Notes: a model not told the origin generated them from the letters alone. A stretch of DNA of 64,000 nucleotides from an uncultured Gammaproteobacteria bacterium (GCA_964650355.1 CAZYTL010000003.1:65750-129749), one strand, 5' to 3'. Positions 6,059 through 25,010 are shown, numbered from the stretch's first letter. Numbers and translations: made by a program.

Positions 6059-6072
6059 TATCGACTATCAGG

Positions 6073-8039: not shown

Positions 8040-8118
8040 ACGCAGCTTCTCAAAGACCTCACCGCTAACTATCCTCTCAAAGCTTCCACTAAAAAACTGC
8101 CCGCCATGGTGAATACCG

Positions 8119-9565: not shown

Positions 9566-9631
9566 ACCCCTACTTTAACCCAACCAATCTCGGACTCGCA
9601 ACCCGTATGTATGACAAATCTTCAATTGCCA

Positions 9632-10468
9632 CTAGCCTCCCCCACTCGATTTTGCTCCACTTACATTGGTTGACCATTCCAATACTCTCTCCAATGCCTT
9701 CTCCATCGCCATTTCCCAAAAAGTCACATGCTTCTCTCGTTCCTTATCCAGTAAACCTTTCACCTCTTTTAATGTCATCTCCCATTCCGGGATATAAAAC
9801 ACATGATCGAGTGGCGCTCCCATCACCATTTCCCCTCGTGGTTCCGTCAACATCACTCCCCGCATCCTCCCATCAACATACTCCACCTCTCCCTCTTCTC
9901 CCCTTGTTATCTGCTCCATCTGTCCCTTATCTGTTTCCATCTGCCTGCCCGCCGTAACTTTAGTGTTGGCGGGTGTGCTCTCCTCTTGCTTTGCAGGAGG
10001 AGGAAACAACAATCCCACCACACACCGCCACTCTGCTCCCCGCGCCTCCGGAGGTATCGCCTGCATCCGCTCCAAACAATACTCTACAATCTCCTCATCC
10101 CTCATCACCGTTACCCCGTCCCTCCATCTCCTCATCAGCGCTCCCGGCTCTCGTCCCAAAGCATCAATACTCAAACCTCTCTCTTCCGCCATAATTATAT
10201 AATCGTCATTCCGTAAAGCCGTTGCTTCGTTAGATTGTTCCTCTGTATTTTCCTCTCGCTGTTTTTCGACTCTTAAGCTCTTTAGCCTCACCTCATACAT
10301 TCTGCACCTCACTGCCACATTCGCCTCCAACGTCCTCCCCGTATCCGGCAAATCTATCTCTATCCCCAACTCCTTCGGCATCTCCACCTCCACCTTATAC
10401 TTACCAAACCTCTCCCTTACCTCCAACAACTTCTTCTTATCCTCTGTCACATAGAGAACCTTGACCAT
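9632..10468 (-). CDS. Ham1/RdgB-like non-canonical purine NTP pyrophosphatase paralog with a ~100-aa acidic insertion
   Basis: N-terminus LYVTEDKKKLLEVRERF and C-terminus TEPRGEMVMGAPLDHVFYIPEWEMTLKE...ALERV align with the clear Ham1 gene at 43932..44480. The central insert is low-complexity. Confidence 0.5.
   Translation of the reverse strand: MVKVLYVTEDKKKLLEVRERFGKYKVEVEMPKELGIEIDLPDTGRTLEANVAVRCRMYEVRLKSLRVEKQREENTEEQSNEATALRNDDYIIMAEERGLSIDALGREPGALMRRWRDGVTVMRDEEIVEYCLERMQAIPPEARGAEWRCVVGLLFPPPAKQEESTPANTKVTAGRQMETDKGQMEQITRGEEGEVEYVDGRMRGVMLTEPRGEMVMGAPLDHVFYIPEWEMTLKEVKGLLDKEREKHVTFWEMAMEKALERVLEWSTNVSGAKSSGGG
9986..9998. repeat. palindrome variant CTTGCTTTGCAGG, in-frame in the Ham1-like paralog (PPPAKQEE)
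   Basis: Degenerate copy sharing the GCTTTGCAG core. Confidence 0.55.
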
Positions 10469-10647
10469 TAACTTAATAATAACACTCTATACCTCTGCCC
10501 CAAAGAACATCGGGACCATCCGTGTACAACACCTTAACTCCCCCCACCCAGCCCTGTCCTCAATGCGTCCATTCCATCAGCATCTGCACCGGCACCAAAG
10601 ACCCTATTTGTAAAAACTGCGGTTTCAAAGACCCCTGCTGTGACTGG

Positions 10648-11139
10648 CTATTTTCTTTCTTTTTTATAATTCCCCATCTCCGGTATCACATACCTCACCC
10701 CTCCCCGAGGATCATCCATATCGCCCTCATACCTGGGAATCACATGCCAGTGCAAATGATCCACTGTCCTGCCTGCAGCCCGGCCATCATTCACGCCATG
10801 ATTATAAGCATCCGGCTTAGTATTAATCCTCGGATGTTTCAACGCCTGCGTGCAGAACCAAATTGAATTATCATTAAAAGGATTTTCTAAAAAACGCTTG
10901 TATACTTTCCTTAAGTCCTCACTTAAAATACCCTCAATTACCCTGTCTATTGCATTTTTTAAATCCGTCCATTCCTCTCTCGACAACCCTTTCAAATCAG
11001 GCACATGTCGCACAGGGAAAACTAACGCATGACCTGGAGCCACCGGAAACGGCTCAAATATAGCTATCCATTTATCATCCCGCCAGATAACAATCTCATT
11101 CGGTTTCAAAACACAAAAAGGACAATTCCTTACCATCAT
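10648..11139 (-). CDS. HIT-family (histidine triad) nucleotide hydrolase/transferase
   Basis: HLHWHVIPR histidine triad motif. Confidence 0.8.
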   Translation of the reverse strand: MMVRNCPFCVLKPNEIVIWRDDKWIAIFEPFPVAPGHALVFPVRHVPDLKGLSREEWTDLKNAIDRVIEGILSEDLRKVYKRFLENPFNDNSIWFCTQALKHPRINTKPDAYNHGVNDGRAAGRTVDHLHWHVIPRYEGDMDDPRGGVRYVIPEMGNYKKERK

Positions 11140-11194
11140 GAATCTCTGTTAATATAAACTGACCCCATCATATCACCAATAGTAGACCCAAACC

Positions 11195-11662
11195 ATGAAT
11201 CAAACCCTTCTCCGCATCGCCCAAAAAGGCATCATCTTAAACCAAACCAAAACCAAAATCCTGGTTGTAAAATACTCCACCGCCAAATACACCTCACAAA
11301 AGGTCAAAAACAAACTCGGATTACCAGGCGGGCAAATAGACTTCAGCGAGACCCCTGACGAATCATTTGTCAGAGAAGTAAAAGAAGAAACCGGCATCAC
11401 GATCGTTCCTCTCCTTCCTTTCCATATCTATACTTGGACATACCAAACTGAAACCCACCTAAAACAAATCATCGCCGTCGCCAGGCTCGGAATTTATCAA
11501 TCTGGAAAATTAACTACTCACAAGCAAGAAAGGGAAACCACTATAGAGTTTTCCCAATGGCTACCCATTAAAGAACTTCAACCCAAAGGGTTTATCATTG
11601 ATGAACAGCCCGTCATCACCAAATTCCTTCAATACCAAAAGCAAAATCCCTTCTCTCTTTAA
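11195..11662 (+). CDS. Nudix hydrolase
   Basis: Canonical Nudix box GLPGGQIDFSETPDESFVREVKEETGI. Confidence 0.75.
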   Translation: MNQTLLRIAQKGIILNQTKTKILVVKYSTAKYTSQKVKNKLGLPGGQIDFSETPDESFVREVKEETGITIVPLLPFHIYTWTYQTETHLKQIIAVARLGIYQSGKLTTHKQERETTIEFSQWLPIKELQPKGFIIDEQPVITKFLQYQKQNPFSL

Positions 11663-11683
11663 TCATCCAGCCCACTAATAGCT

Positions 11684-12112
11684 TTACTTCGGTACTTTCC
11701 TCTTCCTCCTCTTCGTCACCACTTTCTCTAACTCTAGGCGCATTCTCTCCAATTCCTCATCCGTCATATCTTCTGCATCCATAAACCTGTTCCTCGCCGG
11801 CTTTATTGACCGAATCATCTCATCCAACTTCAAATGAATCGCCTTCGAATCCCGATTCTGCGTATTCTGAATCAAAAACACCATCAAAAAGGTCACAATC
11901 GTCGTCCCCGTATTAATCACCAATTGCCATGTATCCGAAAACCCAAACATCGGTCCCGTTAACAGCCACACCACAATCACCATCACCGCCAACATAAACA
12001 CCCGAGAAGTTCCCGCCAACTCCGCCACCTTCTTGGCAAACTTCCTAAACACATCATGCACCCCATTATGACTCTCCGTCGCCATCATTACTTCTAAATT
12101 ATGGTTTGTCAT
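11684..12112 (-). CDS. small membrane protein, low-affinity iron permease-like (Fet4/PF04120-like)
   Basis: Two TM helices and the conserved-looking WQLVINTGTTIVTFLMVFLIQNTQNRD...HLKLDEMI. The family assignment is from memory of bacterial Fet4-like proteins. Confidence 0.5.
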   Translation of the reverse strand: MTNHNLEVMMATESHNGVHDVFRKFAKKVAELAGTSRVFMLAVMVIVVWLLTGPMFGFSDTWQLVINTGTTIVTFLMVFLIQNTQNRDSKAIHLKLDEMIRSIKPARNRFMDAEDMTDEELERMRLELEKVVTKRRKRKVPK

Positions 12113-12124
12113 AAAACCAGTTTA

Positions 12125-13102
12125 TCAAAAATCCTCTCCTTCGTCGCCTTCTAAATACTCTTCCAGCTTTCCGGCATAAATCAACGGCACCACCCCGTGC
12201 ATAATATTATTGTTACTCGGCAATTCATACCGTAAACCAGTCCGTTCAGCAATCAACAACACATTCGCCAGCCCGATTGCTGCCCCGTCCACAAACCCCG
12301 GATGAGAAGGAAACAACTTCACCCTGTCTTTCCGATCCAATAACCGCGTCCGCCAATAAAATTCCCTTGTCTTATCCAAATCCACCTTAAAAGGATGCGA
12401 CTTTGAAAAATTAAACTTCTCCATCTCCACTCCTGCCTCTTGATAAAAATCAATTACCGATGTGGACCCATGTACCAAAGGCGCCTCTCCATCGAATCTC
12501 ACCTCTAAATCAGCAATCGCCTTTCTAATCTCCTCCTCAATTAATTCAAATTCCCTTTCTGTCGCCGGATCTCCTTTAATAAACCTCTCTCGCAAACTCA
12601 ACACTCCGGTCTTCAACAACTTATAGCTCTCTAACTTCTCCCTCTTTCCCCACATAAACTGCACCGATCCCCCGCCGATATCTATGCCCGCGATCCCCCC
12701 TTTCCACTCAAAATCACTTGTCATTCCTCTCCAAAACAACTCCATCTCCGCCTCATGGCTCAAAATCCGCACCTCCCACCCCAACTTGTCCTTAATCTTC
12801 TTCACCACATCCTTTGCATTCTCTGCCTTCCTTAATACCTCCGTTCCGATCACCTCCACTCGTTCCACCTTCATCCTTTCCACTTCTGACTTAAACCTCT
12901 GCAACGCCTCCATCGTCTTTACCAACCCCTCCTCTGACACCTGATCACCCTCCTCCATCCCTCTTCCCAACCTGGTTTCCTCTTTATCTTGAAAAATCAA
13001 CTTCAAATTCCCAAAATCCTGCTTTGCAGGACCCACCTCAAATACCAACAACTTGCTGCTATTCGTTCCCTGGTCAACCACTGCCACTCTTGCCTGCTTC
13101 AT
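12125..13102 (-). CDS. Ppx/GppA-family phosphatase (exopolyphosphatase / pppGpp phosphohydrolase)
   Basis: ASKHA-fold motifs VAVVDQGTNSSKLLVFEV and GIDIGGGSVQF. Confidence 0.8.
   Translation of the reverse strand: MKQARVAVVDQGTNSSKLLVFEVGPAKQDFGNLKLIFQDKEETRLGRGMEEGDQVSEEGLVKTMEALQRFKSEVERMKVERVEVIGTEVLRKAENAKDVVKKIKDKLGWEVRILSHEAEMELFWRGMTSDFEWKGGIAGIDIGGGSVQFMWGKREKLESYKLLKTGVLSLRERFIKGDPATEREFELIEEEIRKAIADLEVRFDGEAPLVHGSTSVIDFYQEAGVEMEKFNFSKSHPFKVDLDKTREFYWRTRLLDRKDRVKLFPSHPGFVDGAAIGLANVLLIAERTGLRYELPSNNNIMHGVVPLIYAGKLEEYLEGDEGEDF
13017..13031. repeat. palindrome variant TCCTGCTTTGCAGGA, in-frame in ppx/gppA (GPAKQDF)
   Basis: Variant with C/G at the outer positions. Still a perfect palindrome. 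Confidence 0.7.
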
Positions 13103-13165
13103 TCTCCCATTATATCCGGCTCACTAAAACCTACTCAACACCACCTCTAAACTATTTACTCCTAT

Positions 13166-13600
13166 CTAAGCTGCCATTGGCAAGTCTTCTTTCATCATCT
13201 CTATCAAATCGTCTAACTCGCCTGGAAACGCATGCCTCGCATCATGCCACGTTTTCTGGGAAGCTAATTTATCAGGCTCTTTACCTCCAATAAATAAATC
13301 ATGAAATTCATACGCCAATACAGGAATTCCAGGAGTTAACCTTTCAAATTCTCTTAATTGAACTCCATCGTCCTGGAGTGAACTCAACACCTTCGTTCTA
13401 CTTTCTACTTGTCTATTAACCCGAGCAATAAAACTTGACCTACTGAAATCTCCCGCTCTAAACCAATCTCTATCAGCAATCACCGTCTTTAATAAACCCT
13501 CAAATTCAGTCAGCGAATGCTTTGCCTCCATCACCTCACCAAGAGTCGGCTCACCCATTTCTACCACATTTTCCGAACCAACTACTGGAAGTTCTCCCAT
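13166..13600 (-). CDS. hypothetical protein
   Basis: 144-aa ORF with host-like composition and no motif. Confidence 0.35.
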   Translation of the reverse strand: MGELPVVGSENVVEMGEPTLGEVMEAKHSLTEFEGLLKTVIADRDWFRAGDFSRSSFIARVNRQVESRTKVLSSLQDDGVQLREFERLTPGIPVLAYEFHDLFIGGKEPDKLASQKTWHDARHAFPGELDDLIEMMKEDLPMAA

Positions 13601-13694
13601 ACTAAAACATAGTATAACTTAATTACCTCTTCACCAGCAACTGCGATTTCGTACAAAATCTCTAACTCCGCCTCTAAACTCATCCTCAGCACAC

Positions 13695-14105
13695 TCACAT
13701 CTCCAGCTCATCTTGCCAATAAGCCTCTACCAAATTCTTAGTATTCGGCGAGACCTCATTCTCCATCTCCTTTAACTCCTGCCAGGAAAAATAAGCCAGC
13801 TTATCAAACTTCTCTTTTTCCTTGGTCTCTGGTTTCCCATCCTCTACCTCAGCTAAATACCACACATAACCCATCGTGTATCCGTCTTCTTTAAAATCCG
13901 CTCTTCCCAGTTCCTTCACTATCTCCACCTTTACTCCCAATTCTTCCTCCACCTCCCTTTCCGCCGCCTCTTCGGACCCTTCTCCCTCTTCGATCTTTCC
14001 GCCCGGCGTTTCCCACTGCACTCTCTTAGGAGTATTCCTATGCAACAACAGCACTTTACCGGCCCCATCTAAAATCACGCATCCAGCCAACAAAATCTTA
14101 TCCAT
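13695..14105 (-). CDS. Nudix hydrolase
   Basis: Nudix box GGKIEEGEGSEEAAEREVEEELGV. Confidence 0.75.
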   Translation of the reverse strand: MDKILLAGCVILDGAGKVLLLHRNTPKRVQWETPGGKIEEGEGSEEAAEREVEEELGVKVEIVKELGRADFKEDGYTMGYVWYLAEVEDGKPETKEKEKFDKLAYFSWQELKEMENEVSPNTKNLVEAYWQDELEM

Positions 14106-14263
14106 GTTCCATATTGTATACTACTTTACTTTCACTTCTAAATAGTAGTATATACTCAGTAGCCTCAAACTAACTTAAATTCTAACTCCTCAAATCAAGT
14201 GAAAACTCCGTAATATGTACGAATTTCTTAACTTTTAAGCGAAGGAGTATACACCCTAAATCC

Positions 14264-14806
14264 TTAAATCTGCACTTCCCTTCCCTTCGTTGTATCCCTC
14301 CCTCCTTGCCACTGACCTCTGTACAAATTCACCGCCTCTCCTTTAATCTCTACAAAAAACACCTGCACAAACCTGGCCCCCAATTCCATCTCTACCGAAA
14401 TATTTCCCGCATTAAACATTCCAAAATACAACGCTCCCCTATACCCGGGATCCGCAATCCAAGCTCTCAGCATCAAACCGCTCCTCACTGTCGTCCCCCT
14501 AGGCTTGATTATTGCCGTTATATTCTTGGGCAAATCCACCTCTTCAATCGTCTTAGTCAAATAATACTTACCCGGCTCAAACACAAACTTCGTCACCCTC
14601 TTCGGATCATAAGCCGCCAACTCCACCAGATCAGGCGTCTCCCGTTCCTCAATCCCGATAAACGCTTTCCCTTTCAATTCAAATACCTTATCCAACCGCA
14701 AATCAAACACACACCCTTCAGGACTCTCCAATTCCCTTTCCGCCAATCCCGTCACCAAAGCATGTTTCTTCATTAACTTTCGCAATTCCGAATGTCCCAA
14801 AATCAT
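14264..14806 (-). CDS. dUTPase/dCTP-deaminase-fold protein, paralog A (lacks the Dcd catalytic Glu)
   Basis: VFDLRLD, KPRGTTVRSG, DPGYRGALYFGMFN, RFVQVFF and YRGQWQGG align to Dcd/Dut motifs. GMFN replaces the TLExxN motif, so the Glu is absent. Confidence 0.65.
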   Translation of the reverse strand: MILGHSELRKLMKKHALVTGLAERELESPEGCVFDLRLDKVFELKGKAFIGIEERETPDLVELAAYDPKRVTKFVFEPGKYYLTKTIEEVDLPKNITAIIKPRGTTVRSGLMLRAWIADPGYRGALYFGMFNAGNISVEMELGARFVQVFFVEIKGEAVNLYRGQWQGGRDTTKGREVQI

Positions 14807-14907
14807 AAACTACATTATATATTCCCCATACTCTAAATGCGGAACAATTTATCTATCCCCAAATACCCTCTATTTTTAGAATCCTAATTCCATTATATAA
14901 TTAATCC

Positions 14908-15831
14908 ATGGAAACTGTACCCTTGAAAGAAAAAGTTATAAAAACAATCAGACCACAAGAGATAACTAATTTATTTGAAAAATTTCCAGTAGGCAGCTTT
15001 GGCGAAAATTTTGACCAATTTAGTCTAAAAGATGCTGTCTCGGCCAGATATAAACAGGTATTTCGCCGTAAAGGATATCGAGCATTAATGAATGAAATTA
15101 ATCAACAAATCGATCAAGGAACCGAATCATATGAACAAGAGGCAGTAAAACACTTAGAAAGAATAAGATCAAACGTAGAATACATCCAAACTGACGAAGT
15201 ACAACAAATCGCTCACGAACTAACAGAGAAACAACCAAATTTAGATCCCAAATGGTTGTTGGATGACGCTTTATCCGGACGACAGATGGATCAAATCATC
15301 CACACTGACGAGCGAGGTCGGAGAATTACTCGGTTCAGGCTACTTGATAACTATAGGCCACAATCAAATAGAAACCAGCCTCTTTGCGGTTTCAACTTTC
15401 CTCCTTTACACGGAGAGCATTCAAATATCACGGCTCTCTTTGTAAATGGTGAGCTAGACGAATTACAAACAGGAGGAATTTCCCATATCAACAGCCTAAA
15501 ATTCGAAAACGGTCAAGTAACTTCTCTTTCTTATTCTGGCGTAGATTGGTTTGATACCTCTGAAGAAACCATCAAAGCGAAACATAGATTACCAGACAAA
15601 GTCCAATTACAAAAATTTGGAAATTTCTTTACACTTCATTTCCCGGAACTAGTGTCCCAAACTGCGAACTCCCGAACCTTCAGACTCAAAGCGTCTCCTA
15701 TGTGGAAAGACACAGGCCACAATCAACCGCAAGAAAATACTTATACAGTTACCTTAAACCAAGATGGGCAGATTACAGAAATTAGAAACGGATGGGATAA
15801 ACCTCTCCTCACTCCGGCAACCGCCAGTTAA
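14908..15831 (+). CDS. hypothetical protein on an AT-rich compositional island
   Basis: 307-aa ORF with no recognisable motif. Composition is AT-rich with balanced G/C, unlike flanking genes. Confidence 0.45.
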   Translation: METVPLKEKVIKTIRPQEITNLFEKFPVGSFGENFDQFSLKDAVSARYKQVFRRKGYRALMNEINQQIDQGTESYEQEAVKHLERIRSNVEYIQTDEVQQIAHELTEKQPNLDPKWLLDDALSGRQMDQIIHTDERGRRITRFRLLDNYRPQSNRNQPLCGFNFPPLHGEHSNITALFVNGELDELQTGGISHINSLKFENGQVTSLSYSGVDWFDTSEETIKAKHRLPDKVQLQKFGNFFTLHFPELVSQTANSRTFRLKASPMWKDTGHNQPQENTYTVTLNQDGQITEIRNGWDKPLLTPATAS

Positions 15832-15974
15832 ACTAGTTAAACTCTACACTTCGCAAGTACTCCATCCGCTCACCTTATACTTCCAACACCTAGTCTCCTT
15901 TCCTTTTATCTCACTTCTGTTTAAATCGTTTCTTCATTAGACATAATTCCCCTATCAAGCTACAATAAATTCCA

Positions 15975-16811
15975 ATGCTTCCTCTAGACCTTCAATACCA
16001 AAAAATACTCCGCCAACTCATGACCAAAGGCATTGAAGAAACCAACCAACGCACCGGACACCAAACCAAAAGCCTTCCCGGGATTACCGTCCAAATCGAT
16101 CTCCGACACAGCTTCCCCTTACTCACCTTGCGAAAAATACCCATCAAAATCTTCGTCGCCGAACAAATCTGGTTCATCATGGGCAGCCGCCGGCCCGACG
16201 AATTCCTCAAAGAATTCACCGGAATCTGGGACGATTTCACCAACATTGGAGGCGTGGTTACCGTTGCCTACGGCTACCGCATGCGCCACCACTTTGGTAG
16301 AGACCAACTGGCCTTACTCATTAAACTGCTGGAAAAGGACCCCAGTTCTCGCCACGGAGTTATTGTCTTCTGGGACCCGGGTGATGACGGACTCGCCCAA
16401 AGCAGAAAAAAGAAAAACGTCCCCTGTCCCTACACCTTCACCACCAATATCATCGGCGGACAACTGCACTTCCATTTAATTGTTCGCTCCAACGACATGA
16501 TTCTAGGTTTTCCTCACGACTTAGCCGGCTTTGCTCTCCTGGCCCATATCCTAGCTTCCAGACTTGGCGTCCAACCCGGTATCTTTACCCATTCCATCAG
16601 CAACGCTCATGTTTACGACATCCACTATTCAGCAGCCCAAACCATGATCCACAGAAAAATTAATCACCCCCCCATAAAACTTACCACCCAACCTGACTAC
16701 TTCTCCCGCGCAGAACATGGAGATCGCACCCTGGTCAGTGGTATAGTAAGTCAGTTACAATCCCAATATCATCCCGGCCCACCCATCAAAGGCCTCAAAA
16801 TCGTCTTATAA
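15975..16811 (+). CDS. thymidylate synthase (ThyA) family enzyme; predicted deoxycytidylate-specific methylase/hydroxymethylase rather than canonical ThyA
   Basis: ThyA-fold motifs RTGHQT, DPSSRH and catalytic Cys in VPCPYTF. VRSNDMILGFPHDLAGFALL aligns to E. coli [20 protein letters not shown]. Asp sits at the Asn177 position, and the RSND motif matches T4 gp42 RSNDVVFGFRND. Confidence 0.8.
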   Translation: MLPLDLQYQKILRQLMTKGIEETNQRTGHQTKSLPGITVQIDLRHSFPLLTLRKIPIKIFVAEQIWFIMGSRRPDEFLKEFTGIWDDFTNIGGVVTVAYGYRMRHHFGRDQLALLIKLLEKDPSSRHGVIVFWDPGDDGLAQSRKKKNVPCPYTFTTNIIGGQLHFHLIVRSNDMILGFPHDLAGFALLAHILASRLGVQPGIFTHSISNAHVYDIHYSAAQTMIHRKINHPPIKLTTQPDYFSRAEHGDRTLVSGIVSQLQSQYHPGPPIKGLKIVL

Positions 16812-16834
16812 TTACTACCAACTCTCACCACCAC

Positions 16835-17479: not shown

Positions 17480-17486
17480 CCTGTTC

Positions 17487-17996
17487 ATGATCATTGCCAT
17501 CGCCGCCACCTCTTTAGATGGTAAAATTGCCCTTCATTCCCAAGATGACACCTCCTGGAGCTCCCCGGAAGATAAAAAATTATTCAAACAAGCCACCCAA
17601 AAAGCCGGTGTCCTGGTCATTGGTCGCACCACCTGGAAAACCATCAACCGCCCTCTCCCCGACAGACAAATCATCGTCCTCACCCGCAAACCACCAACCT
17701 CTAAATACCCTACCGTCGAATTCACCCATCTTCCTCCTCAAAAATTAATCACCGAACTGACTTCTCGAGGCTACCGCGATATCTTCTTCGCGGGGTGCCA
17801 GCAAATCTACACCCTCTTTTTAACCCAAAAACTCATCGACCAGCTCTGGATCACCATCGAACCCTACCTCTTCGGTCACCCAGCTCTCAGTTTATTCTCC
17901 TCTCTCCCCGCCTCGCCTATCAAACTCAAACTCCTCACCCTCCAACGGCTCAACCCCAACTCAATCCACCTCAAGTACCAAATCATCTATGAGTAA
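17487..17996 (+). CDS. dihydrofolate-reductase-like reductase (RibD C-terminal domain type)
   Basis: IAATSLDGKIA...VLVIGRTTW...RPLPDRQIIVLTR. Overlaps the next gene by 8 nt (ATGA-type coupling). Confidence 0.65.
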   Translation: MIIAIAATSLDGKIALHSQDDTSWSSPEDKKLFKQATQKAGVLVIGRTTWKTINRPLPDRQIIVLTRKPPTSKYPTVEFTHLPPQKLITELTSRGYRDIFFAGCQQIYTLFLTQKLIDQLWITIEPYLFGHPALSLFSSLPASPIKLKLLTLQRLNPNSIHLKYQIIYE

Positions 17997-18609
17997 CCGC
18001 CCCCCTTTCCTTATCTCATCCCAAAAAAATCAAGGAGCCGAAATCGTCTCTCTCACTTACCCCCACGGCACTTCTCCTCAACCATCAGCCCTTGATCTCT
18101 CCGCCCTTGTTTTATTCACTCAAAAAGCCCTCGACCACCAAACCCAAGAAATTTATCTCCGCCTGCCCTACAAATCTCCCCTCATCACCATCGAATATGG
18201 AAACAGCCCTTTTTTACACCAAGCGCAACAAATTGCCCGCCAACACTCCTTGGATCCCGGACATCCCACTGCCACCGTATTAGTTAAAGGCCATCAAATC
18301 ATCAGCTCCGGAGCTAACGGCTCCACCTATCATGATCAATATGGCTGTAGAAGAAAAGAACTAAACATCCCTACCGGCCAAGGATATGAACTCTGTGAAG
18401 GATGCCATCCCAAAAACCACTCCGAACCTACCGCCATCAGAGCCGCAGCAGCCGCTCACAAAACCCACCTCCTTTCCGAAGCCACCGCCTATCTCTATGG
18501 CCACTGGTGGTGTTGCCAACCCTGCTGTGCTGCCCTGGAACAAGCCGGCATAACCAAAGTCGTCTTTTCCCTCCCCTGGACCCAAAAATTTCTGGAGATT
18601 GATATCTAA
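17989..18609 (+). CDS. dCMP deaminase (cytidine/deoxycytidylate deaminase zinc-binding fold)
   Basis: Zinc ligand motifs H(S)E in CHPKNHSEPTAI and PCxxC in CCQPCCAALEQAGI. Confidence 0.8.
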   Translation: MSNRPPFLISSQKNQGAEIVSLTYPHGTSPQPSALDLSALVLFTQKALDHQTQEIYLRLPYKSPLITIEYGNSPFLHQAQQIARQHSLDPGHPTATVLVKGHQIISSGANGSTYHDQYGCRRKELNIPTGQGYELCEGCHPKNHSEPTAIRAAAAAHKTHLLSEATAYLYGHWWCCQPCCAALEQAGITKVVFSLPWTQKFLEIDI

Positions 18610-19064
18610 CCCTCCGTCCCGAAAAACACCACCGATCCCACCTTCATCCCCGAGTACAACTTCACCTTAAACGGCCCTACGTTAGAAATTTCCAAAGTCA
18701 ATTTATTGGACCTTCCCGGATCACAAAAATATGACGCCTGATAAATCGCCACCCCTAATTTTGCCAACTTTGTCCTCCCATCGAGCATTGCCGCTATCTT
18801 TCTTGATAAAGTAATCGTCTCTTTGGTCTCACTCACCACAAACATCCCTGGCTCCAACAGAAAACCCTCATCCTCCATCTCTGTCTCTTCGTACTCCGGA
18901 TCCGTCTTTTCTCGCAAATCAACCACCTGCCCCGGCTTGGGTATCCAGATTTTACTTCCTAATCGCACCTCATAAACCATCCCGTCGATTAACTCTTCAT
19001 CAAAAGGTTCAATGGAAATCTCCTCCTCCGCCATCGCCTGTTTAATCTGCACCCCACTTAACAT
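18606..19064 (-). CDS. dCTP deaminase (Dcd)-like, short form with catalytic TLE motif
   Basis: EVRLGSKIW and DPGRSNKLTLEISN retain the Dcd Glu. Its stop overlaps the stop of the convergent dCMP deaminase gene. Confidence 0.6.
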   Translation of the reverse strand: MLSGVQIKQAMAEEEISIEPFDEELIDGMVYEVRLGSKIWIPKPGQVVDLREKTDPEYEETEMEDEGFLLEPGMFVVSETKETITLSRKIAAMLDGRTKLAKLGVAIYQASYFCDPGRSNKLTLEISNVGPFKVKLYSGMKVGSVVFFGTEG

Positions 19065-19067
19065 ACT

Positions 19068-21581
19068 TCACAAACTACACTCACTCCACCCGCAATCCTG
19101 ACAGGTCACACATCCGCTTTCATATACTACCCCTGCTCCGCACTCCGGACACACCGTCGTCTCTCCTGCTCCGGGTCGCACTGCCCTCATCACGGCCGGC
19201 TCCATTCTCAATTGCTCTGCCCCCCCTACCTCAACCGCTTTACTCACATGACCGTTCAGACTCCCGTTTCCCTGCCCGGCTAATTTCTGCCTCCTGCCTG
19301 TCTCACCGTGTATCGTACCATTTGTGTTCCCCAACTCTCCTTTTACCCCTTCAGCATCTACTCTCTCTCCTGTTCTAACTTTCGATTCCTGCTTACCCAC
19401 TTCTCCAATAGGAACTTCGACCCTCTTCTCCTTCACTTTTTCTTTTGCCAAATTCAGCACCTGATCCTGCTTGCTCCCGTCCCGATAAATCGTAATCCCC
19501 TTGCATCCCAATTTCCAAGCTAACAAATAAGCCTTCTTCACCTCCCCCACCGTCGCCTCGTGTCTGAAATTAATCGTCTTAGAAATCGAATTATCAAACC
19601 ACTTCTGCCAGGCTGCCTGAATCTTCACATGCCAGGTTGGGGCAATCTCGTGCGTAGTCACAAACACCTTATAAAACCACCCCGGCAACCCTTCAACTGC
19701 TTTTAATCCCTGTTCCGCCGCCACCGCCAACACCGCATCCAGATCCTCCAGGATCTTTCCATTAGCTTTTAGCTTATAGCTCTTAGCTCTTAGCTGTTTT
19801 TGAAGAGCATCTTCAAAAACCTTGTCCACCATCATAAATTCCCTTGTCGGTCGATTCTTCTTGTCGTCCTCGTTAAACGCCTTTCTCAAAGTTACCAACG
19901 AAAACACCGGTTCAATCCCGCTGCTTGTGTTCGCCAACAAACTAATCGTCCCCGTCGGCGCAATCATCGTCAAAGCACAATTACGGTACTTCTCCGCCGA
20001 CCCTGCATAAATCGACACATCCCAGTTCGGAAAAGTCCCTCTTACCTTAGCCAGCTCCAAGCTCTCTGCCTCTGCTGTTTTATGAATAAACTTTGCCAGT
20101 CTGCTTGCCAACCGTACCGCTTCCTGAGAATTATAAGGAATCCCCAACAAATAAAGCATATGCGCAAACCCCATCACTCCCAATCCAATCCTCCGGTTCC
20201 CATGCTTCACCATCTGCTCAATCTCCGGTATCGCATAAGTATTCACCTCTATCATGTTATCCAAAAAGCGAATTCCCAATCTTACCGACTTTTCCAAATC
20301 TTCCCAATCAATCTCATATTCCCCTTCATTAATTTTTGATCTTTGCTTTTTGCTTTTTGCTTTTTTAGTCAAGTGCTTATGTAAACAAATACTCGTTAAA
20401 TTACATGATTCATAAGGCAGCAAAGGAATCTCCCCACAGGGATTCGTCGCATCAATCTTCCCTATCGCCGGTGTTGGGTTATCCTCTTCCATCCGGTCCA
20501 AAAACGCCAGTCCCGGATCCCCGCTTACCCAAGCGTGTTCCGTAATCAAATCAAACAACTCTCTGGCTTTCATTCTCTTCCACACCTCTCCATTCCGCGG
20601 ATTCCTCAACTTCCACATCTCATCCCTCTCTACCGCCTCCAAAAACTCATTTGTCACCCCCACACTAATATTAAAATTCTTAATCGTCCCGTCCTCGTCT
20701 TTCAAATGTATAAACTCCTCAACATCCGGATGATCCACATTCAAAATCGCAATATTGGCTCCCTGCCTCTTCGCCCCCTGCAAAATCTGCGCCAAAGTTG
20801 CTGAATACGCCCGTAAAAAGTCCACCGGACCGCTCGCCGCCCCAGGCACATTTTTCACCTTATCGCCGTGCGGCCTGATCCTGCTAAAATTAAACCCTGT
20901 TCCCCCGTTATTCTTGTGCACTACCGCCGCATCTCCCAAAGTCTTAAAAATCGACTGAACCGAATCCTCAATCGGCAACACAAAACATGCGGACATCTGT
21001 CCGCTCCCTCCCGGATTGCCAGCCTCGAACATCGCCTTCCCCGTTGGTAAAAATTTCCAGTTCACCAACCGCTCATAAAACTGCTTTGCCATATCCTTTA
21101 CCTCTCCGTTACCCGACCACTGAATCTCTGCTTTAGCCATATGCTGTGCCACCCGCCAAAACAATTCTCCCGGAGACTCAATCACCTTTCCTTCCATATC
21201 CGTCCGCAAATACCTCTTCTTAGCAATCTCCATCCCCACTTCACTCATCTCCGGCTCCACCAGTTTCACCTGTTTCTTCTGCGCCTGCTCCTTTCTCTCC
21301 CGGTACAAAATATAATACCGCGCCGTTTTAAAATACCCGGCTTCAGCCATTGCTGGTTCCACCACATCTCGGATCTCCTGAGTAGAAATCCTTTCCTTCT
21401 TTACTTTACTCAACCTTTCTCTCACCGTCCTCAAAATCCCCTTTGCTTCCTTTTTGCCAAACGCCTTAGTATCCTTTCCTGCCGCCACCACACTCCTCTC
21501 CACCTTCCCCCACTCAAAGGGTTGCTCAGTCCCATCATTCTTAACGACCATCTTGATTATTAACTTTCTTAATCTCGCCAT
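19068..21581 (-). CDS. nrdJ: class II (adenosylcobalamin-dependent) ribonucleotide reductase NrdJ with N-terminal ATP-cone and C-terminal Zn-ribbon
   Basis: ATP-cone VVKNDGTEQPFEWGKV. Catalytic NPCGEIPL...CNLTS. C-terminal CPECG...CVTCQDCG. Lys-rich insert KKAKSKKQRSK encoded by TTTTTGC repeats. Confidence 0.85.
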   Translation of the reverse strand: MARLRKLIIKMVVKNDGTEQPFEWGKVERSVVAAGKDTKAFGKKEAKGILRTVRERLSKVKKERISTQEIRDVVEPAMAEAGYFKTARYYILYRERKEQAQKKQVKLVEPEMSEVGMEIAKKRYLRTDMEGKVIESPGELFWRVAQHMAKAEIQWSGNGEVKDMAKQFYERLVNWKFLPTGKAMFEAGNPGGSGQMSACFVLPIEDSVQSIFKTLGDAAVVHKNNGGTGFNFSRIRPHGDKVKNVPGAASGPVDFLRAYSATLAQILQGAKRQGANIAILNVDHPDVEEFIHLKDEDGTIKNFNISVGVTNEFLEAVERDEMWKLRNPRNGEVWKRMKARELFDLITEHAWVSGDPGLAFLDRMEEDNPTPAIGKIDATNPCGEIPLLPYESCNLTSICLHKHLTKKAKSKKQRSKINEGEYEIDWEDLEKSVRLGIRFLDNMIEVNTYAIPEIEQMVKHGNRRIGLGVMGFAHMLYLLGIPYNSQEAVRLASRLAKFIHKTAEAESLELAKVRGTFPNWDVSIYAGSAEKYRNCALTMIAPTGTISLLANTSSGIEPVFSLVTLRKAFNEDDKKNRPTREFMMVDKVFEDALQKQLRAKSYKLKANGKILEDLDAVLAVAAEQGLKAVEGLPGWFYKVFVTTHEIAPTWHVKIQAAWQKWFDNSISKTINFRHEATVGEVKKAYLLAWKLGCKGITIYRDGSKQDQVLNLAKEKVKEKRVEVPIGEVGKQESKVRTGERVDAEGVKGELGNTNGTIHGETGRRQKLAGQGNGSLNGHVSKAVEVGGAEQLRMEPAVMRAVRPGAGETTVCPECGAGVVYESGCVTCQDCGWSECSL

Positions 21582-21677
21582 ATAAAACTAAGTATTTAGT
21601 ATCATGCCCGTCTAAATTGTCCCCAAACTATTTTCCTGTCTGCATTTATCTGTTTTACATCGGTTTTCATCACTTGT

Positions 21678-24371
21678 CTAGCACTCCGAATAACCGCATC
21701 CGTGACACGTCTTGCATCCCATTTCATAGACCAGTGTCGCATTTCCGCAATCCGGACAAATATCAGCTGACCTGGCCACCAAATGCATCCCCGCTTCCCT
21801 TGATTTTCCATCAGTCACCGGGGGGTCAACTGCCTCATCTTCCCCTTTTTCATCATCTGTAATCTTCAATTGCATCCCGTCCTCAGCCGTTGACTCTTGA
21901 TGCTTGGAATCTGTCGTTACTGCTTGGTGTTGCTCCCCAAACCCAATCAGTCCCATATCTATCGCCATCGCCTTAGCCACCGCATCCGGCAGAGAATAAA
22001 CCTTTCTTGTCCCGAACCCCACTGACCTGGAACTACCGATCCCGGCTAACTGATCCACAATCAACTTTGCTCTCTCACTCGAAGACAAATTACTGTTAAA
22101 CTTCAAAGACTTTGATATCAACCGCCCCAATGCCTCTGCCATCGCCTGAATATCACTCCCTGCTCTGCCAATATTAATAAACACTTCCACCGGCGATCCG
22201 TCCTCATCATGATTCACCGTCACAAACGCTCTTCCGATCGGTGTATCCATCTTATAAGTCGCTCCCACCACCTTCATCGGCCTCAACCACGAAACTGGTT
22301 TATCCTCCATAGCTTTAGCAAAGGAGGGCTGGCCCTCTGTCGTTCCTGCTAAGACGGATTTTTCCGCCAACCCATTTCCTTTATGCTCTTTATCTGATGC
22401 GCTAGCGCGAATCAGAGTTCCCTCTCTCGACCCCTCCCTCATATACGAAATCCCTTTACAACCTGTTTTGTAAGCCAACTCATATAACCTTTTCACCTCT
22501 TCCACCGTATGAGTCTTCGGGGCATTCACTGTCTTACTAATCGATGAATCAGTATACTTCTGAATCAAAGCCTGAATCTCCACATGCTCTTCAGGACTCA
22601 AATCATCCGCTACCACAAAATACTCCGGCAAACTTCCTTTCTCCAAATTCCCCTCTACCAATCCGCCGGAGGCACCATCATTTTGCTTTTTGCTTTTTGC
22701 TTTTTGCTTTTGTTTCATCCACTCCTCATAGAGTGGATGAAACATCGTCCTCTCTCCCAATCGATCCTTCTGAGTATAAACAAACGAAAACACCGGTTCT
22801 ATCCCCGAAGACGCTCCCGCCAGCAACGCAATCTTCCCTGTCGGCGCTTCCGTCAACAGCAATGCATTCCTTATCCCGTTCTGTCGGATCCTTTCTCTTA
22901 TCCCTTCAGGTATCGTCTTCATAAACCCGCTCGCCAAATACTGGTCAGTCTTAAACATGGGAAACGCTCCCTTCTCCTTAGCCAGCTCTATCGATGTCTC
23001 ATAAGCCACATCTCTCAACATCTTGTAAATCTTCTCAATCATCTCCAAAGATTCTGGAGATCCGTATCTCAGCTTCATCTTCATCAGCGCGTCCGCCAAC
23101 CCCAACGTTCCCAATCCTAACCGCCTCTCTCGCAACTGCCTCTTCTGAATCTGATTATATAAATAATTCTCTGCATCTACCGCATTATCCAAAAATCTCA
23201 CCCCCACTTTAATCAACCCTCTATAGTCTTCCCAGTCAAACCCTGGCCCCCCATTCTGCTTTGCAGAAACCAAGGCCGACAAATTTATCGACGACAGATT
23301 GCACACTCCGAACGCCGGCAACGGTTGCTCCCCGCATGGATTAGTAGAAACATTCTTCTCAAAATACCACGTATTATTCATCCTATTCGCCCTGTCCATA
23401 AAATAAATCCCCGGCTCCGCGCTTCCCCACGCCGACTCACAAATCAGATTCCACAACTCTCTCGCTTTTATGGTTTTGTACACTTTTACCGGATACCCTT
23501 TCTTCTCCCACTCTTCCAAGTCTCCGCCCCATTCACCCCGATATTTGGCAAAATCAGTCTCTGGAAATTTCAACTCCCAATCGCCATCCTCCTCCACTGC
23601 TTTCATCAACTTGTCCGACACACACACACTTAAATTCGCCCCCAACATCTTTCCCTGCTCTTTCTTTACCATAATAAACTCTTCTACATCCGGGTGCCAA
23701 TCCCACAACATCATCATCAACGCCCCCCTCCTCGTCCCTCCTTGCTGAATAATATCGTGCGCCGTCACCGAATATAATTCCGCCCAGCTCACCGATCCTG
23801 AACTCGTTCCGTTCACCGCCTTCAAATAAGACCCTCTCGGCCGTAAACTCGACAAATTAAATCCCACTCCTCCTCCCCGAGCACTAATCTCCGTCACCCT
23901 TTCCAAAGTCTTAATAATCCCCTTCCGCGTGTCCTCCGGGTCAGGAATCACAAAACAATTAATCATCGTCGTTTCCGTTCCCGTCCCTGCCGAAGTTAGG
24001 AACCTCCCCGCCGGACAAAAACGAAAATTTTTCATTGCCGCATAAAACTTCTCTTCCCATTCCTCTCTTAACTCAGTAGTCTTCTCCTCTTGAGCCACCG
24101 CCCAGGCCACCCTCCGCCACATCTGTTCCGGAAATTTCTCCATCGGTTCCCCTTTCTTATTCTTCAACGCATATCGATCTAAAAACAACTGCCTCCGAAT
24201 CCCCTCCAACTCCGTTCCTTGATCCATCGCTACAAAATGCCTACCATTCTCTTTTCCTTGATCTCGCCTTTGCTCTCCTGCCACTCTATTCCCACCTCGC
24301 ACATCTCCACCCCCTCTATTCTGATTAGTATTGATTACCTGATCCGGATAACCATTATTTGTCATAAACAA
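21678..24371 (-). CDS. nrdJ: class II ribonucleotide reductase paralog (no ATP-cone) with C-terminal Zn-ribbon
   Basis: NPCGEQPLPAFGVCNLSS. C-terminal CPDCG...CKTCHGCG. Same KQKAKSKKQ insert encoded by an identical TTTTGCTTTTTGC repeat. Confidence 0.85.
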   Translation of the reverse strand: MFMTNNGYPDQVINTNQNRGGGDVRGGNRVAGEQRRDQGKENGRHFVAMDQGTELEGIRRQLFLDRYALKNKKGEPMEKFPEQMWRRVAWAVAQEEKTTELREEWEEKFYAAMKNFRFCPAGRFLTSAGTGTETTMINCFVIPDPEDTRKGIIKTLERVTEISARGGGVGFNLSSLRPRGSYLKAVNGTSSGSVSWAELYSVTAHDIIQQGGTRRGALMMMLWDWHPDVEEFIMVKKEQGKMLGANLSVCVSDKLMKAVEEDGDWELKFPETDFAKYRGEWGGDLEEWEKKGYPVKVYKTIKARELWNLICESAWGSAEPGIYFMDRANRMNNTWYFEKNVSTNPCGEQPLPAFGVCNLSSINLSALVSAKQNGGPGFDWEDYRGLIKVGVRFLDNAVDAENYLYNQIQKRQLRERRLGLGTLGLADALMKMKLRYGSPESLEMIEKIYKMLRDVAYETSIELAKEKGAFPMFKTDQYLASGFMKTIPEGIRERIRQNGIRNALLLTEAPTGKIALLAGASSGIEPVFSFVYTQKDRLGERTMFHPLYEEWMKQKQKAKSKKQNDGASGGLVEGNLEKGSLPEYFVVADDLSPEEHVEIQALIQKYTDSSISKTVNAPKTHTVEEVKRLYELAYKTGCKGISYMREGSREGTLIRASASDKEHKGNGLAEKSVLAGTTEGQPSFAKAMEDKPVSWLRPMKVVGATYKMDTPIGRAFVTVNHDEDGSPVEVFINIGRAGSDIQAMAEALGRLISKSLKFNSNLSSSERAKLIVDQLAGIGSSRSVGFGTRKVYSLPDAVAKAMAIDMGLIGFGEQHQAVTTDSKHQESTAEDGMQLKITDDEKGEDEAVDPPVTDGKSREAGMHLVARSADICPDCGNATLVYEMGCKTCHGCGYSEC
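22681..22712. repeat. tandem (TTTTTGC)n microsatellite inside nrdJ paralog 2; near-identical tract at about 20335-20366 inside nrdJ paralog 1
   Basis: Encodes KQKAKSKKQ and KKAKSKKQ on the minus strand. Confidence 0.8.
23253..23268. repeat. 16-bp palindrome ATTCTGCTTTGCAGAA, in-frame within nrdJ paralog 2 (peptide SAKQN)
   Basis: Exact palindrome. The other copies are at about 41001-41016, 45921-45936, 47957-47973 and variants at 9986-9998 and 13017-13031. Confidence 0.8.
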
Positions 24372-24440
24372 ATTTTTATCTTAAATTACTTTATAAATTA
24401 ATAGTTGATTTCTCATTTCCCCATTTGATAACGTATCCAG

Positions 24441-24890
24441 TTACGCACTCTCTTTTTCTATAATCTTCTCAAAATCATTTAAATCTTCGAATTCCAAATA
24501 CACACTCGCAAATCGCAGCCAGGCTACTTTATCCAGCTTCTTAATCCTTCTCAACACTACCTGGCCCACCTTTTTACTGGGAATCTCTGCATCGCCTATC
24601 CTTAACAACTCCCGTTCTACCGCATCCACCAGTGAGTCAATCTTCTCTACCGCCACGGGCCGCTTATTAAACGCCCTCCGAATCCCTTCCTCCAACTTCT
24701 GCCGATCAAATGGCTCTCTTTTCCCGTCCTTCTTCACCACCATCAACGCTTGGCCTTCAACCCGTTCATAAGTCGTAAACCTTCGCTTACACTTCCCGCA
24801 CTCTCTCCTCCTCCGCAGAGACTCCCCGTCAATCCCTGCCCTAGACTCCAATACCGAAGTTTCCGTTGAATTACAAAAAGGACATTTCAT
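24441..24890 (-). CDS. nrdR: NrdR transcriptional repressor
   Basis: N-terminal zinc ribbon MKCPFCNSTETSVLESR...CGKCKRRF plus an ATP-cone. Sits upstream of the two nrdJ genes on the same strand. Confidence 0.9.
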   Translation of the reverse strand: MKCPFCNSTETSVLESRAGIDGESLRRRRECGKCKRRFTTYERVEGQALMVVKKDGKREPFDRQKLEEGIRRAFNKRPVAVEKIDSLVDAVERELLRIGDAEIPSKKVGQVVLRRIKKLDKVAWLRFASVYLEFEDLNDFEKIIEKESA

Positions 24891-25010
24891 AAATAAATCA
24901 ATTGCTAAACTGCTCTATTGTCAAATAGTTAATAGCGCATCTTATAAACCAACAGTTTAACCGTTCAACATTTAACAATATCTCTTTTTCCCCTACATTT
25001 AGTGGCGGTA

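Follow-up and report, generated by a model that had tools for sequence, protein, structure and literature searches.

Why does one short stretch of a bacterial chromosome hold so many genes for the supply and sanitation of DNA precursors, and do these genes belong together? The question is raised by a 64,000-nucleotide stretch deposited under an uncultured Gammaproteobacteria bacterium (GCA_964650355.1, CAZYTL010000003.1:65750-129749; hereafter the window). Within it, positions 9632..24890 encode two class II ribonucleotide reductases (RNRs; NrdJ1 and NrdJ2), the repressor NrdR, a ThyA-family methylase, a dihydrofolate reductase (DHFR)-fold protein, a cytidine/dCMP-deaminase-family protein, three Dcd-fold proteins, and a set of Ham1-like, HIT, Nudix and Ppx/GppA hydrolases. 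An initial annotation had assigned these families, and all of the assignments were reproduced by hidden Markov model searches, with Pfam matches at the coordinates given below and NCBIfam scores compared with the curated cut-off where one exists. It had also seen a real clustering: nucleotide-pool genes, as binned by our own functional assignment, account for 14 of 17 genes in the block and, in the rest of the window, for 3 of the roughly 40 that were called (Fisher p=5e-8), a concentration that is not chance. The remaining window genes include those of a Patescibacterium (candidate phyla radiation) chromosome, namely two class A penicillin-binding proteins (PBPs), DUF5667, ValRS, RpiB, Rpe, TIM and a cysteine desulfurase. 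The locus is very probably a composite region for the supply of deoxynucleoside triphosphates (dNTPs) with an NrdR-controlled nrd operon. A fuller explanation, which we hold to be evenly poised between right and wrong, is that this deoxynucleotide-supply region of a Microgenomates chromosome consists of two older modules and accessory genes, and that one module, a thymidylate cassette, works through 5-methyl-deoxycytidine monophosphate (5-methyl-dCMP).

Related nrd loci, found through NrdJ1 homologues, separate the parts of the block. In an NCBI assembly (L102) whose NrdJ1 is 68% identical to that of the window, the gene order PBP1-GH18-PBP1-DUF5667-NrdR-NrdJ2-NrdJ1-hyp207-VWA-PduO-hyp-TrwB-like-...-integrase is that of the window from position 38776 down to 292, with a single difference: the window has 13 extra genes, at 10648..19064 (8.4 kb), between nrdJ1 and the Ham1-like gene Ham1a. 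Most of this backbone is also found in L103 and in the Woesebacteria chromosome L104. Orthologues of nrdJ2 with 61-63% identity occupy the same position in L102-L104, as does an orthologue of the VWA-domain protein (49% identity) in L102. The L102 protein hyp207 is weakly Ham1-like (Pfam E=0.032; BLASTP 3e-4) and is probably the positional counterpart of Ham1a, which would make Ham1a part of the conserved backbone; Microgenomates relatives share nrdR-nrdJ2-nrdJ1-(Ham1-like)-VWA-pduO. The segment at 10648..19064, about 8.4 kb, appears to be a lineage-specific insertion, as the closest long relative is without it at this position. A prophage or mobile-element origin, suggested by the integrase and the TrwB-like gene, was rejected, since both belong to the backbone kept in L102-L104 and the strand skew shows no change over the insertion.

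What follows nrdJ1 differs from lineage to lineage, yet nucleotide enzymes are found in this slot repeatedly. In L104 it contains a third RNR, MazG and a Nudix protein 50% identical to NudixB of the window, and in L101 a Nudix protein (27% to NudixB), a third RNR, Maf and a BtuR-type adenosyltransferase. The corresponding nrd slot of L099 (Collierbacteria) has three RNRs, a BtuR-type adenosyltransferase and a Nudix gene, while that of L097 has two RNRs, a Nudix gene and two ThyX genes. The thymidylate cassette has its own context. Among 80 genome loci centred on homologues of the window ThyA, the only recurring genes are ThyA-Dcd2-DHFR-deaminase; no Ham1, Ppx or Nudix gene lies near ThyA in any of the 80, a HIT gene does so once (L023), and NrdJ is found there only in Chloroflexi loci and L039. 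In the closest cassette-bearing relatives (L081 and L004), the cassette does not adjoin nrd. Because backbone and cassette are separate in relatives, the 15-kb block is best described as two older modules joined in this lineage, together with accessory genes. The 15-kb super-cluster of the initial annotation is not a conserved unit: related genomes keep the order nrdR-nrdJ2-nrdJ1-...-pduO and have the cassette in a place of its own, and neither type of locus contains the other hydrolases. Nor is the content atypical in kind, since it is usual for Microgenomates to have NrdJ in two or three copies accompanied by Nudix, MazG or Maf, although the window is the fullest case seen.

Synteny establishes the arrangement of the first module, and its regulation can be read from the promoter. 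The nrdR gene (24441..24890, minus strand) encodes a Zn_ribbon_NrdR domain and an ATP-cone (TIGR00244 186, cut-off 125). Upstream of it by 100-150 bp lie tandem 16-bp palindromic NrdR boxes, CCCCTACATTTAGTGG and CCACTAGTCCTAGTAT, whose starts are 32 bp apart, and this is the only pair of CTA-N4-TAG cores at 30-33 bp spacing in the 64 kb. The predicted nrdR promoter (24990..25042, minus strand) comprises box 1 at 24990-25005, box 2 at 25022-25037, a TTGACA -35 element at 25042-25037 and a -10 element at 25019-25014; the box pair thus overlaps the top-scoring promoter-like site of the region, with its -35 at 25042. Promoter-like and terminator-like sites are no more frequent in the block than in shuffled sequence, and only the promoter-like site lying over the NrdR boxes is used here. 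In L101-L104, too, nrdR has this TTGACA-box-box arrangement upstream of it. Tandem boxes phased by about 31-32 bp at a promoter are the hallmark of the NrdR regulon, and the pair is the predicted operator of nrdR-nrdJ2-nrdJ1. At the other transcription units of the block no tandem operator was found, only single box-like sites at 14867-14882 and 7791-7806, at the divergent Dcd1/hyp307 promoter and upstream of pduO, respectively. Both are weak, so that the proposed control by NrdR applies to the nrd operon, where the tandem boxes are conserved in relatives, but is unsupported for the block as a whole.

The two reductases of this operon are class II enzymes, each with the RNR barrel, the NxCxE thiyl loop, an NrdJ_Z score above the cut-off and a C-terminal Cys cluster. 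NrdJ1 (19068..21581, minus strand; TIGR02504 (NrdJ_Z) 642, cut-off 400) has an N-terminal ATP-cone, an NPCGE loop and a C-terminal Zn-ribbon. NrdJ2 (21678..24371, minus strand; TIGR02504 590, cut-off 400) has the NPCGE thiyl-radical loop and a TSCPD/Cys-rich C-terminus with CxxC...CxxC and is without an ATP-cone; its true start may lie about 48 codons downstream of the TTG. The two are 34% identical, with the ATP-cone in NrdJ1 only. Genes for NrdB, NrdF and NrdG are absent from the window and an adenosyltransferase is a conserved neighbour, a context that points to dependence on adenosylcobalamin (AdoCbl). The neighbour is a PduO-type ATP:cob(I)alamin adenosyltransferase (6724..7605, minus strand; Cob_adeno_trans PF01923 1e-43), separated from the Ham1-like gene by the VWA-domain protein (8159..9565, minus strand; VWA 1e-14). 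As pduO adjoins nrdJ in L090, L091, L102, L103 and L104, and a BtuR-type enzyme replaces it in L099 and L101, the earlier suggestion that PduO supplies AdoCbl to NrdJ is supported by the gene neighbourhood in seven related loci. The Dcd3 gene starts 3 nt past the nrdJ1 stop and, because of this gap, is probably part of the nrd operon. Module A would thus comprise an NrdR-repressed nrdR-nrdJ2-nrdJ1 operon, here extended by Dcd3, followed by the divergent Ham1-like, VWA and PduO genes, and would provide two non-redundant RNRs. A metagenome scan with NrdJ1 yielded only short contigs, and one with Dcd3 yielded no match. Many of the Patescibacteria proteins among the NrdJ1 homologues are about 1,400-1,465 amino acids (aa) long with a TSCPD domain, nearly double the length, and others carry intein domains (PF14528, PF14890).

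The second module is carried here on the 8.4-kb insertion and is conserved across Patescibacteria. It consists of the ThyA-family C5-methylase (15975..16811, plus strand; Thymidylat_synt PF00303 2e-51; NCBIfam TIGR03284 122, cut-off 108), Dcd2 (16835..17479, plus strand), the DHFR-fold reductase (17487..17996, plus strand; DHFR_1 9e-17, RibD_C 8e-16) and, as last gene, the cytidine/dCMP-deaminase-family protein (17989..18609, plus strand; dCMP_cyt_deam_1 9e-12), which has HSE and CQPC zinc motifs and a 75-aa N-terminal extension. The reductase and deaminase genes overlap by 8 nt; this overlap and the gaps of 3, 7 and 23 nt between other genes, as calculated from the coordinates, indicate operon structure. 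Among the 45 Patescibacteria loci with an Asp-type ThyA and enough flanking sequence, Dcd2 is present in 43, DHFR in 42, the deaminase in 40 and a Tmk-like kinase in 29. Dcd2 has a Dcd/dUTPase fold without the deaminase Glu: its GHLTIPVRN segment aligns to ITLELFN and ITLELSN of solved dCTP deaminases, placing Pro at the Glu position, and this Pro is kept in cassette homologues. It is predicted to be a (d)NTP pyrophosphatase, either a dCTPase or a dUTPase.

The ThyA-family protein has a cytosine-type active site, as judged from a phmmer alignment to solved thymidylate synthases and a MAFFT alignment with E. coli ThyA, T4 gp42 and phage enzymes. The ThyA fold is present with catalytic Cys146 and with Glu58, Tyr94, Arg166 and Asp169. 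Thymidylate synthase (EC 2.1.1.45; E. coli numbering) has Asn177, by which the O4/N3 face of uracil is read, and His147; in the window protein Asn177 has become Asp and His147 has become Pro, and Phe stands at Trp83. Asp177 and a PCP[YF] motif occur in 120 of the 120 best homologues, which come from Microgenomates, Saccharimonadales, Parcubacteria, Doudnabacteria and Anaerolineae. An exact look-up of the window sequence gave no recorded match. The nearest phage proteins, with 35-38% identity, are the thymidylate synthase homologues of Pamexvirus phiH2, the XP12-like Xanthomonas phage DoCa10 and Steinhofvirus 83-24; all three have Asp177, Pro147 and Phe83 too, each with a deaminase gene directly downstream. 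In a neighbour-joining tree, the Patescibacteria family is sister to the enzymes of 5-methylcytosine (5mC) phages (L088, L105, L106), apart from Asn-type ThyA and T4 gp42.

Published work has shown that the Asn177 to Asp exchange switches substrate preference to dCMP. In addition, five of seven tested Asp-type phage enzymes make 5-methyl-dCMP, and the neighbouring phage deaminases convert 5-methyl-dC nucleotides to dT nucleotides, so that a second thymidylate synthase is unneeded; a deaminase neighbour was found in 70% of modified contigs and in 6% of unmodified ones (bioRxiv 10.1101/2024.12.05.627091). The residue signature, the grouping with phage proteins and the neighbouring deaminase-family gene of the window agree with a deoxycytidylate 5-methyltransferase of the XP12/PaMx74 type. 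A dCMP hydroxymethylase of the T4 gp42 type fits less well, as the Asp is shared but identity is 22%, the branch is separate and the long C-terminus of thymidylate synthases is kept. The label of the initial annotation is thus right as to family, though the window ThyA is without the defining residues of a thymidylate synthase, and by its signature it probably acts on dCMP. One locus, L085, has a canonical Asn-type ThyA beside the Asp-type, and since both are carried together the two types are not interchangeable.

Other homologous loci show further arrangements of the Asp-type gene. At L085:7845-12230 (Logan SRR27214645), next to ribosomal-protein genes, the Asn-type ThyA, Tmk and a dCMP deaminase lie on one strand; on the other side are the Asp-type ThyA, a Dcd-fold gene without the Glu and a T4 gp1-like dNMP kinase (PF21448), a kinase also found in L022. 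At L041:5790-12690, in a metagenome-assembled Chloroflexi genome (Anaerolineae), the Asp-type ThyA accompanies a class II RNR, two Dcd-fold genes, a gene with weak resemblance to nucleoside 2-deoxyribosyltransferases and another member of the ThyA family that is highly divergent (342 aa). Similar arrangements in L029, L036, L061 and L062 recall the MilA/MilB-type pathways for modified cytosine.

From these parts a route can be proposed that would methylate first and deaminate second. Scavenged ribonucleotides would be reduced by two differently regulated AdoCbl-dependent RNRs, with PduO completing the cofactor. Dcd2 would hydrolyse dCTP to dCMP, ThyA would methylate dCMP to 5-methyl-dCMP with methylenetetrahydrofolate, DHFR would recycle the dihydrofolate from this step, and the deaminase would convert the 5-methyl-dC nucleotide to a dT nucleotide, giving dCTP->dCMP->5-methyl-dCMP->dTMP overall. 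The operon-linked DHFR and the retained C-terminus resembling that of thymidylate synthases are consistent with reductive methylation to 5-methyl-dCMP and dihydrofolate. Dcd1 and the Nudix, HIT, Ppx/GppA and Ham1 proteins, with functions assigned from family only, might remove or trim non-canonical or surplus nucleotides; most plausibly, these accessory enzymes clean and trim the pool of an organism living on scavenged nucleotides. The conservation of the cassette is established and its chemistry is proposed: the full route to dTMP falls just short of an even chance in our estimate. We lean slightly against the broader proposition, tentative as it is, that Patescibacteria and some Chloroflexi have no conventional thymidylate synthase and that their 'thyA' operon serves a dUMP-independent route known so far only from 5mC phages.

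Several points weigh against this explanation. The same four genes fit the textbook pathway, so that gene content cannot discriminate: an ordinary dUMP-dependent thymidylate synthase, despite Asp177, could be served by a deaminase acting from dCMP to dUMP, Dcd2 as dUTPase and DHFR as recycler of folate, in a tidy dNTP neighbourhood. TIGR03284 is a thymidylate synthase model and scores above its cut-off, the closest solved structures are thymidylate synthases, Cys146, Glu58, Tyr94, Arg166, Asp169 and the C-terminus are in place, the classical pathway fits the gene content, and Patescibacteria thyA has been treated as the dTMP-forming enzyme of a minimal gene set (PMC12455944). The case for dCMP as substrate comes from a signature of two or three residues and from phage homologues that are 35-38% identical; the cassette deaminase has no significant similarity to the XP12-like phage deaminase and no sequence match to any solved structure in the PDB; and two ThyX genes adjoin the RNRs of the skewed relative L097. 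The insertion was deduced by comparison with three contigs, of which L102 is long and close and the others are more distantly related, and the accessory hydrolases are assigned at family level only, most of them scoring below equivalog cut-offs. An ordinary thymidylate synthase is nevertheless unlikely, if far from negligible, given that Asp177/Pro147 occurs in 120 of 120 homologues, that the published substitution to Asp confers preference for dCMP and natural Asp-type enzymes make 5-methyl-dCMP when tested, that the family groups with 5mC-phage enzymes instead of Asn-type ThyA, and that L085 keeps an Asn-type ThyA beside the Asp-type.

The phage precedent also allows a bolder outcome, in which 5-methyl-dCMP is phosphorylated into DNA and replaces much or all cytosine, as in XP12 and PaMx74, with Dcd2 as a dCTPase excluding dCTP and the deaminase diverting part of the product to dTTP. 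The cassette matches the phage module component by component (NTP pyrophosphatase, Asp-type thymidylate synthase homologue, deaminase), Tmk-like kinases occur in 29 of 45 cassettes, the T4 gp1-like kinase (PF21448) is added beside the cassette in L085 and L022, and the related genome Ch65 is without restriction-modification and CRISPR (Kadnikov et al., PMC7143001). The association with DHFR and Tmk is, however, equally expected for the dTMP route, there is no dNMP kinase in the window, and DNA with all cytosine as 5mC should drift to A+T through unrepairable deamination, whereas the window has 48% G+C. Moreover, no report was found of globally methylated Patescibacteria DNA, despite many genomes sequenced by several chemistries including nanopore. 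Such a genome is improbable here. An extreme variant, with part or all genomic cytosine as 5mC in lineages that add the T4 gp1-like dNMP kinase, is an equally long shot; L085 would be the best candidate for genuine incorporation of 5mC into cellular DNA. At the other end stands neutral juxtaposition, in which rearrangement placed the insertion beside nrd without selection and the hydrolases serve unrelated housekeeping (Ap4A, polyphosphate, ADP-ribose). The whole arrangement is not conserved, the block is divided among at least five transcription units in both orientations and contains an iron permease gene as well as two genes of unknown function, a convincing NrdR operator is present at the nrd promoter only, and most hydrolases are unassignable to a substrate. 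Yet the enrichment is strong (p=5e-8), Dcd3 appears from its coordinates to be translationally coupled to nrdJ1, and in four other lineages the place downstream of nrdJ is independently occupied by Nudix, MazG, Maf, ThyX or additional RNR genes, which argues for recurrent selection for co-location; coincidence is accordingly rather unlikely. Depletion of dNTPs or signalling nucleotides on phage infection by the extra Dcd-fold, Nudix and HIT proteins is very unlikely indeed. Some dCTP deaminases are defensive, HIT or Nudix proteins do occur as parts of defence systems, and weak generic PADLOC matches were obtained for the HIT protein (ThsC, 24 bits) and two Nudix proteins (candidate PDC-S07), but 0 of 3 Dcd-fold proteins match a PADLOC defence model, these proteins are small and single-domain, without the sensor or kinase domains of defensive deaminases, and their neighbours are housekeeping biosynthetic genes.

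The paralogy of the block had been described as redundancy in the initial annotation. All three Dcd-fold genes match the DCD/dUTPase-fold Pfam family (E 3e-22 to 3e-32). In E. coli Dcd, the catalytic residue is Glu138 and the Ser/Arg motif comprises Ser111 and Arg115. None of the three window proteins combines the catalytic Glu and TLE motif with the Ser/Arg motif of dCTP deaminases. Dcd1 (14264..14806, minus strand) is an archaeal-type, dUTPase-like protein in which the Glu is replaced by Gly (LYFGMFN; PRK02253 dUTPase 74.5, dCTP_deam 85, below the cut-off of 93). Dcd3 (18606..19064, minus strand; TIGR02274 111, cut-off 93) is short, with 152 aa; its LTLEISN segment retains the deaminase Glu, its Ser/Arg motif has become Lys/Lys (GRTKLAKLG) and the C-terminal lid is missing. 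The Dcd-fold label is thus correct for the family, though two of the three genes lack the defining deaminase residues.

Among the Ham1-like genes, Ham1c (43932..44480, minus strand), which lies outside the block, is a canonical RdgB/ITPase with an equivalog match and TxNxxK and SHR motifs (Ham1p_like 2e-47; TIGR00042 161, cut-off 145). Ham1a (9632..10468, minus strand; Ham1p_like 1e-19) and Ham1b, outside the block (38780..39394, minus strand; Ham1p_like 3e-16), are divergent, match the Pfam domain only and score below equivalog cut-offs. Ham1a has an insert of about 90 aa and TED and is without the SHR motif, and the open reading frame (ORF) of Ham1b extends to 39436, its real start probably being 39394. 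The first insertion gene on the Ham1a side encodes a HIT-family nucleotide hydrolase/transferase (10648..11139, minus strand; HIT 8.5e-19; HLHWHVI motif). It is followed by NudixB (11195..11662, plus strand; NUDIX 5e-14), the nrd-associated hydrolase with homologues beside the RNRs of L104 and L101. Further along are a short Ppx/GppA-family phosphatase (12125..13102, minus strand; Ppx-GppA 2e-38; TIGR03706 152, below the cut-off of 307) and the MutT-like hydrolase NudixC (13695..14105, minus strand; NUDIX 1e-23), which has a full Nudix box and whose best NCBIfam matches are MutT-type, all below cut-offs. Outside the block, NudixA (1564..2094, minus strand) is a marginal Nudix protein of NudE/ADP-ribose type (NUDIX 21.1 bits, equal to the cut-off; NudE 24 bits). 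The endonuclease Q homologue (61592..62953, minus strand) was also correctly recognised: it matches the PfuEndoQ structures 5zb8 and 7k30 (E=2e-43) in two aligned segments (residues 5-55 and 112-438) and has an N-terminal PHP-type DxHxHS metal motif and a Zn finger, placing it in that family. Identity is 23-28% within the Dcd-fold trio and 21-31% over partial alignments among the Ham1 paralogues, and the Nudix proteins are not detectably similar. With identities of 21-34% or undetectable similarity, together with differing catalytic residues, the paralogues are ancient and are not redundant copies, and recent duplication as the source of the paralogy was rejected.

Three non-nucleotide genes, unmentioned in the initial annotation, lie inside the block. 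The low-affinity iron permease (11684..12112, minus strand; Pfam PF04120 2e-51) is one of two families of iron-transport genes observed within RNR neighbourhoods, the other being VIT1 at L099:16046-16762 (Collierbacteria); class II RNRs do not require iron. The protein hyp144 (13166..13600, minus strand) has no significant family match in Pfam or NCBIfam. Directly upstream of the ThyA gene, hyp307 (14908..15831, plus strand; 307 aa) is a lineage-specific ORFan without a Pfam or NCBIfam match, even at E<=5; searches among 5.8 billion and 1.84 billion proteins found only itself and one fragment, and its single-sequence AF2 model is unconfident (pLDDT 35). No riboswitch or other RNA element was found near pduO and nrd in positions 1..30000 at E<=0.1. 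Elsewhere in the window, the sole tRNA is a tRNA-Ile with a UAU anticodon (2324..2396, minus strand; ARAGORN; Rfam 74.7 bits), and reading of AUA by such a tRNA is uncommon among bacteria. At 26018..27474 (54% G+C), ORFs of about 300 codons without a family match overlap on both strands, while 52384..61507 contains two very large genes (882 and 1,891 aa) without a Pfam match, which may encode surface proteins typical of the group.

The window also has an extreme strand asymmetry. Its plus strand has 33.4% C and 14.2% G, with a skew of -0.23 to -0.64 in every 2-kb bin whatever the gene orientation, and the skew of L102 is equally strong. At four-fold degenerate sites the plus strand has about 52% C, 6.5% G, 26% T and 15% A and is thus pyrimidine-rich, with an A/T asymmetry that is hidden in whole-sequence counts. 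The proteome is reshaped by the skew, its amino acid composition varying with the coding strand: Gly, Glu, Val, Lys and Arg are abundant in the products of minus-strand genes (Glu 9.9% vs 4.2%), and Pro, Thr, Gln, His and Ser in those of plus-strand genes (Pro 7.8% vs 3.4%). Extreme G/C strand disparity has already been published for UBA1400 Microgenomates (Kadnikov et al. 2020, PMC7143001). A link between skew and gene cluster was rejected for now, as the skewed L102 is without the insertion at that position and the unskewed L099, L101, L103 and L104 have similar nrd-adjacent hydrolases. In L097, a close and equally skewed relative, the skew flips abruptly from about -0.45 to about +0.45 just upstream of two RNR genes (L097:8000-10000; JGI Ga0401391_004548), and the genes on either side point away from the flip. 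The pattern resembles that of a replication origin or else of a recent inversion, and is relevant to the unidirectional replication that has been proposed in print for this lineage.

In the terms of the initial annotation, the locus illustrates well, though without surprise, how functionally related genes gather about an RNR operon under NrdR control; the selection on the composition of the dNTP pool that had been proposed for it remains conjecture. The most valuable result is the cytosine-type ThyA cassette, a lead that hints at a cellular counterpart of the phage 5mC pathway. A search limited to the open literature gave nothing on Asp-type ThyA enzymes or on the metabolism of 5mC nucleotides in Patescibacteria, whose thyA is treated there as an ordinary thymidylate synthase (PMC12455944). 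Patescibacteria are a large share of bacterial diversity and live on scavenged nucleotides, making the supply of DNA precursors central to their biology. If the proposed route is correct, metabolic reconstructions that score 'ThyA present' mis-assign the reaction, a thymidylate pathway avoiding dUMP and dUTP exists in cells beyond phages, and the evolutionary source of phage 5mC modules becomes clearer.

Comparison with known systems places the locus among several precedents. One is Candidatus Chazhemtobacterium aquaticus Ch65, together with other UBA1400 Microgenomates, also a small Patescibacteria genome relying on scavenged nucleotides, in which one strand has far more C than G from end to end and A and T differ little overall; the skew of the window exceeds that of Ch65 (29.8% C, 15.0% G), and nucleotide gene cluster and ThyA type are undiscussed in the Ch65 paper (Kadnikov et al. 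2020, PMC7143001). The nrd operon resembles NrdR-regulated class II RNR operons in the Zn-ribbon and ATP-cone of its NrdR, in the tandem 16-bp palindromic boxes that lie over the promoter at a spacing of about 32 bp and in the NPCGE loop of its reductases. Unlike in those operons, nrdR is the first gene, two divergent nrdJ paralogues (three in relatives) stand in tandem, and an adenosyltransferase and house-cleaning pyrophosphatases are conserved neighbours. The canonical thymidylate pathway, from Dcd/Dut or dCMP deaminase through dUMP to ThyA and FolA, has the same four folds, with thyA beside a DHFR gene and with the catalytic Cys and most folate and phosphate ligands conserved. It differs in that Asn177/His147 is replaced in the window and the cassette Dcd-fold protein is without the deaminase Glu. 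The phage T4 set (nrdAB, td, frd, cd, gp42, gp56, gp1) likewise gathers RNR, a dCMP C5-modifying ThyA-family enzyme, DHFR, dCMP deaminase and a dCTP/dUTP pyrophosphatase in one region; however, gp42 is a hydroxymethylase without the C-terminus of thymidylate synthases, on a separate branch, and the window is cellular and has neither dNMP kinase nor glucosyltransferase. In contrast to the 5mC module of XP12 and of PaMx74/Pamexvirus, the window cassette is chromosomal, cellular and conserved across a whole bacterial group. Its pyrophosphatase is Dcd-fold where the phages have MazG or HAD, it adds DHFR and, in many cassettes, a Tmk-like kinase, its deaminase is not detectably related to that of the phages, and ThyA identity is just 35-38%. 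Both nevertheless have a cytidine/dCMP-deaminase-family gene in the operon, an adjacent NTP-pyrophosphatase gene and a ThyA homologue with Asp177, Pro147 and Phe83, the two families being sisters in the tree.

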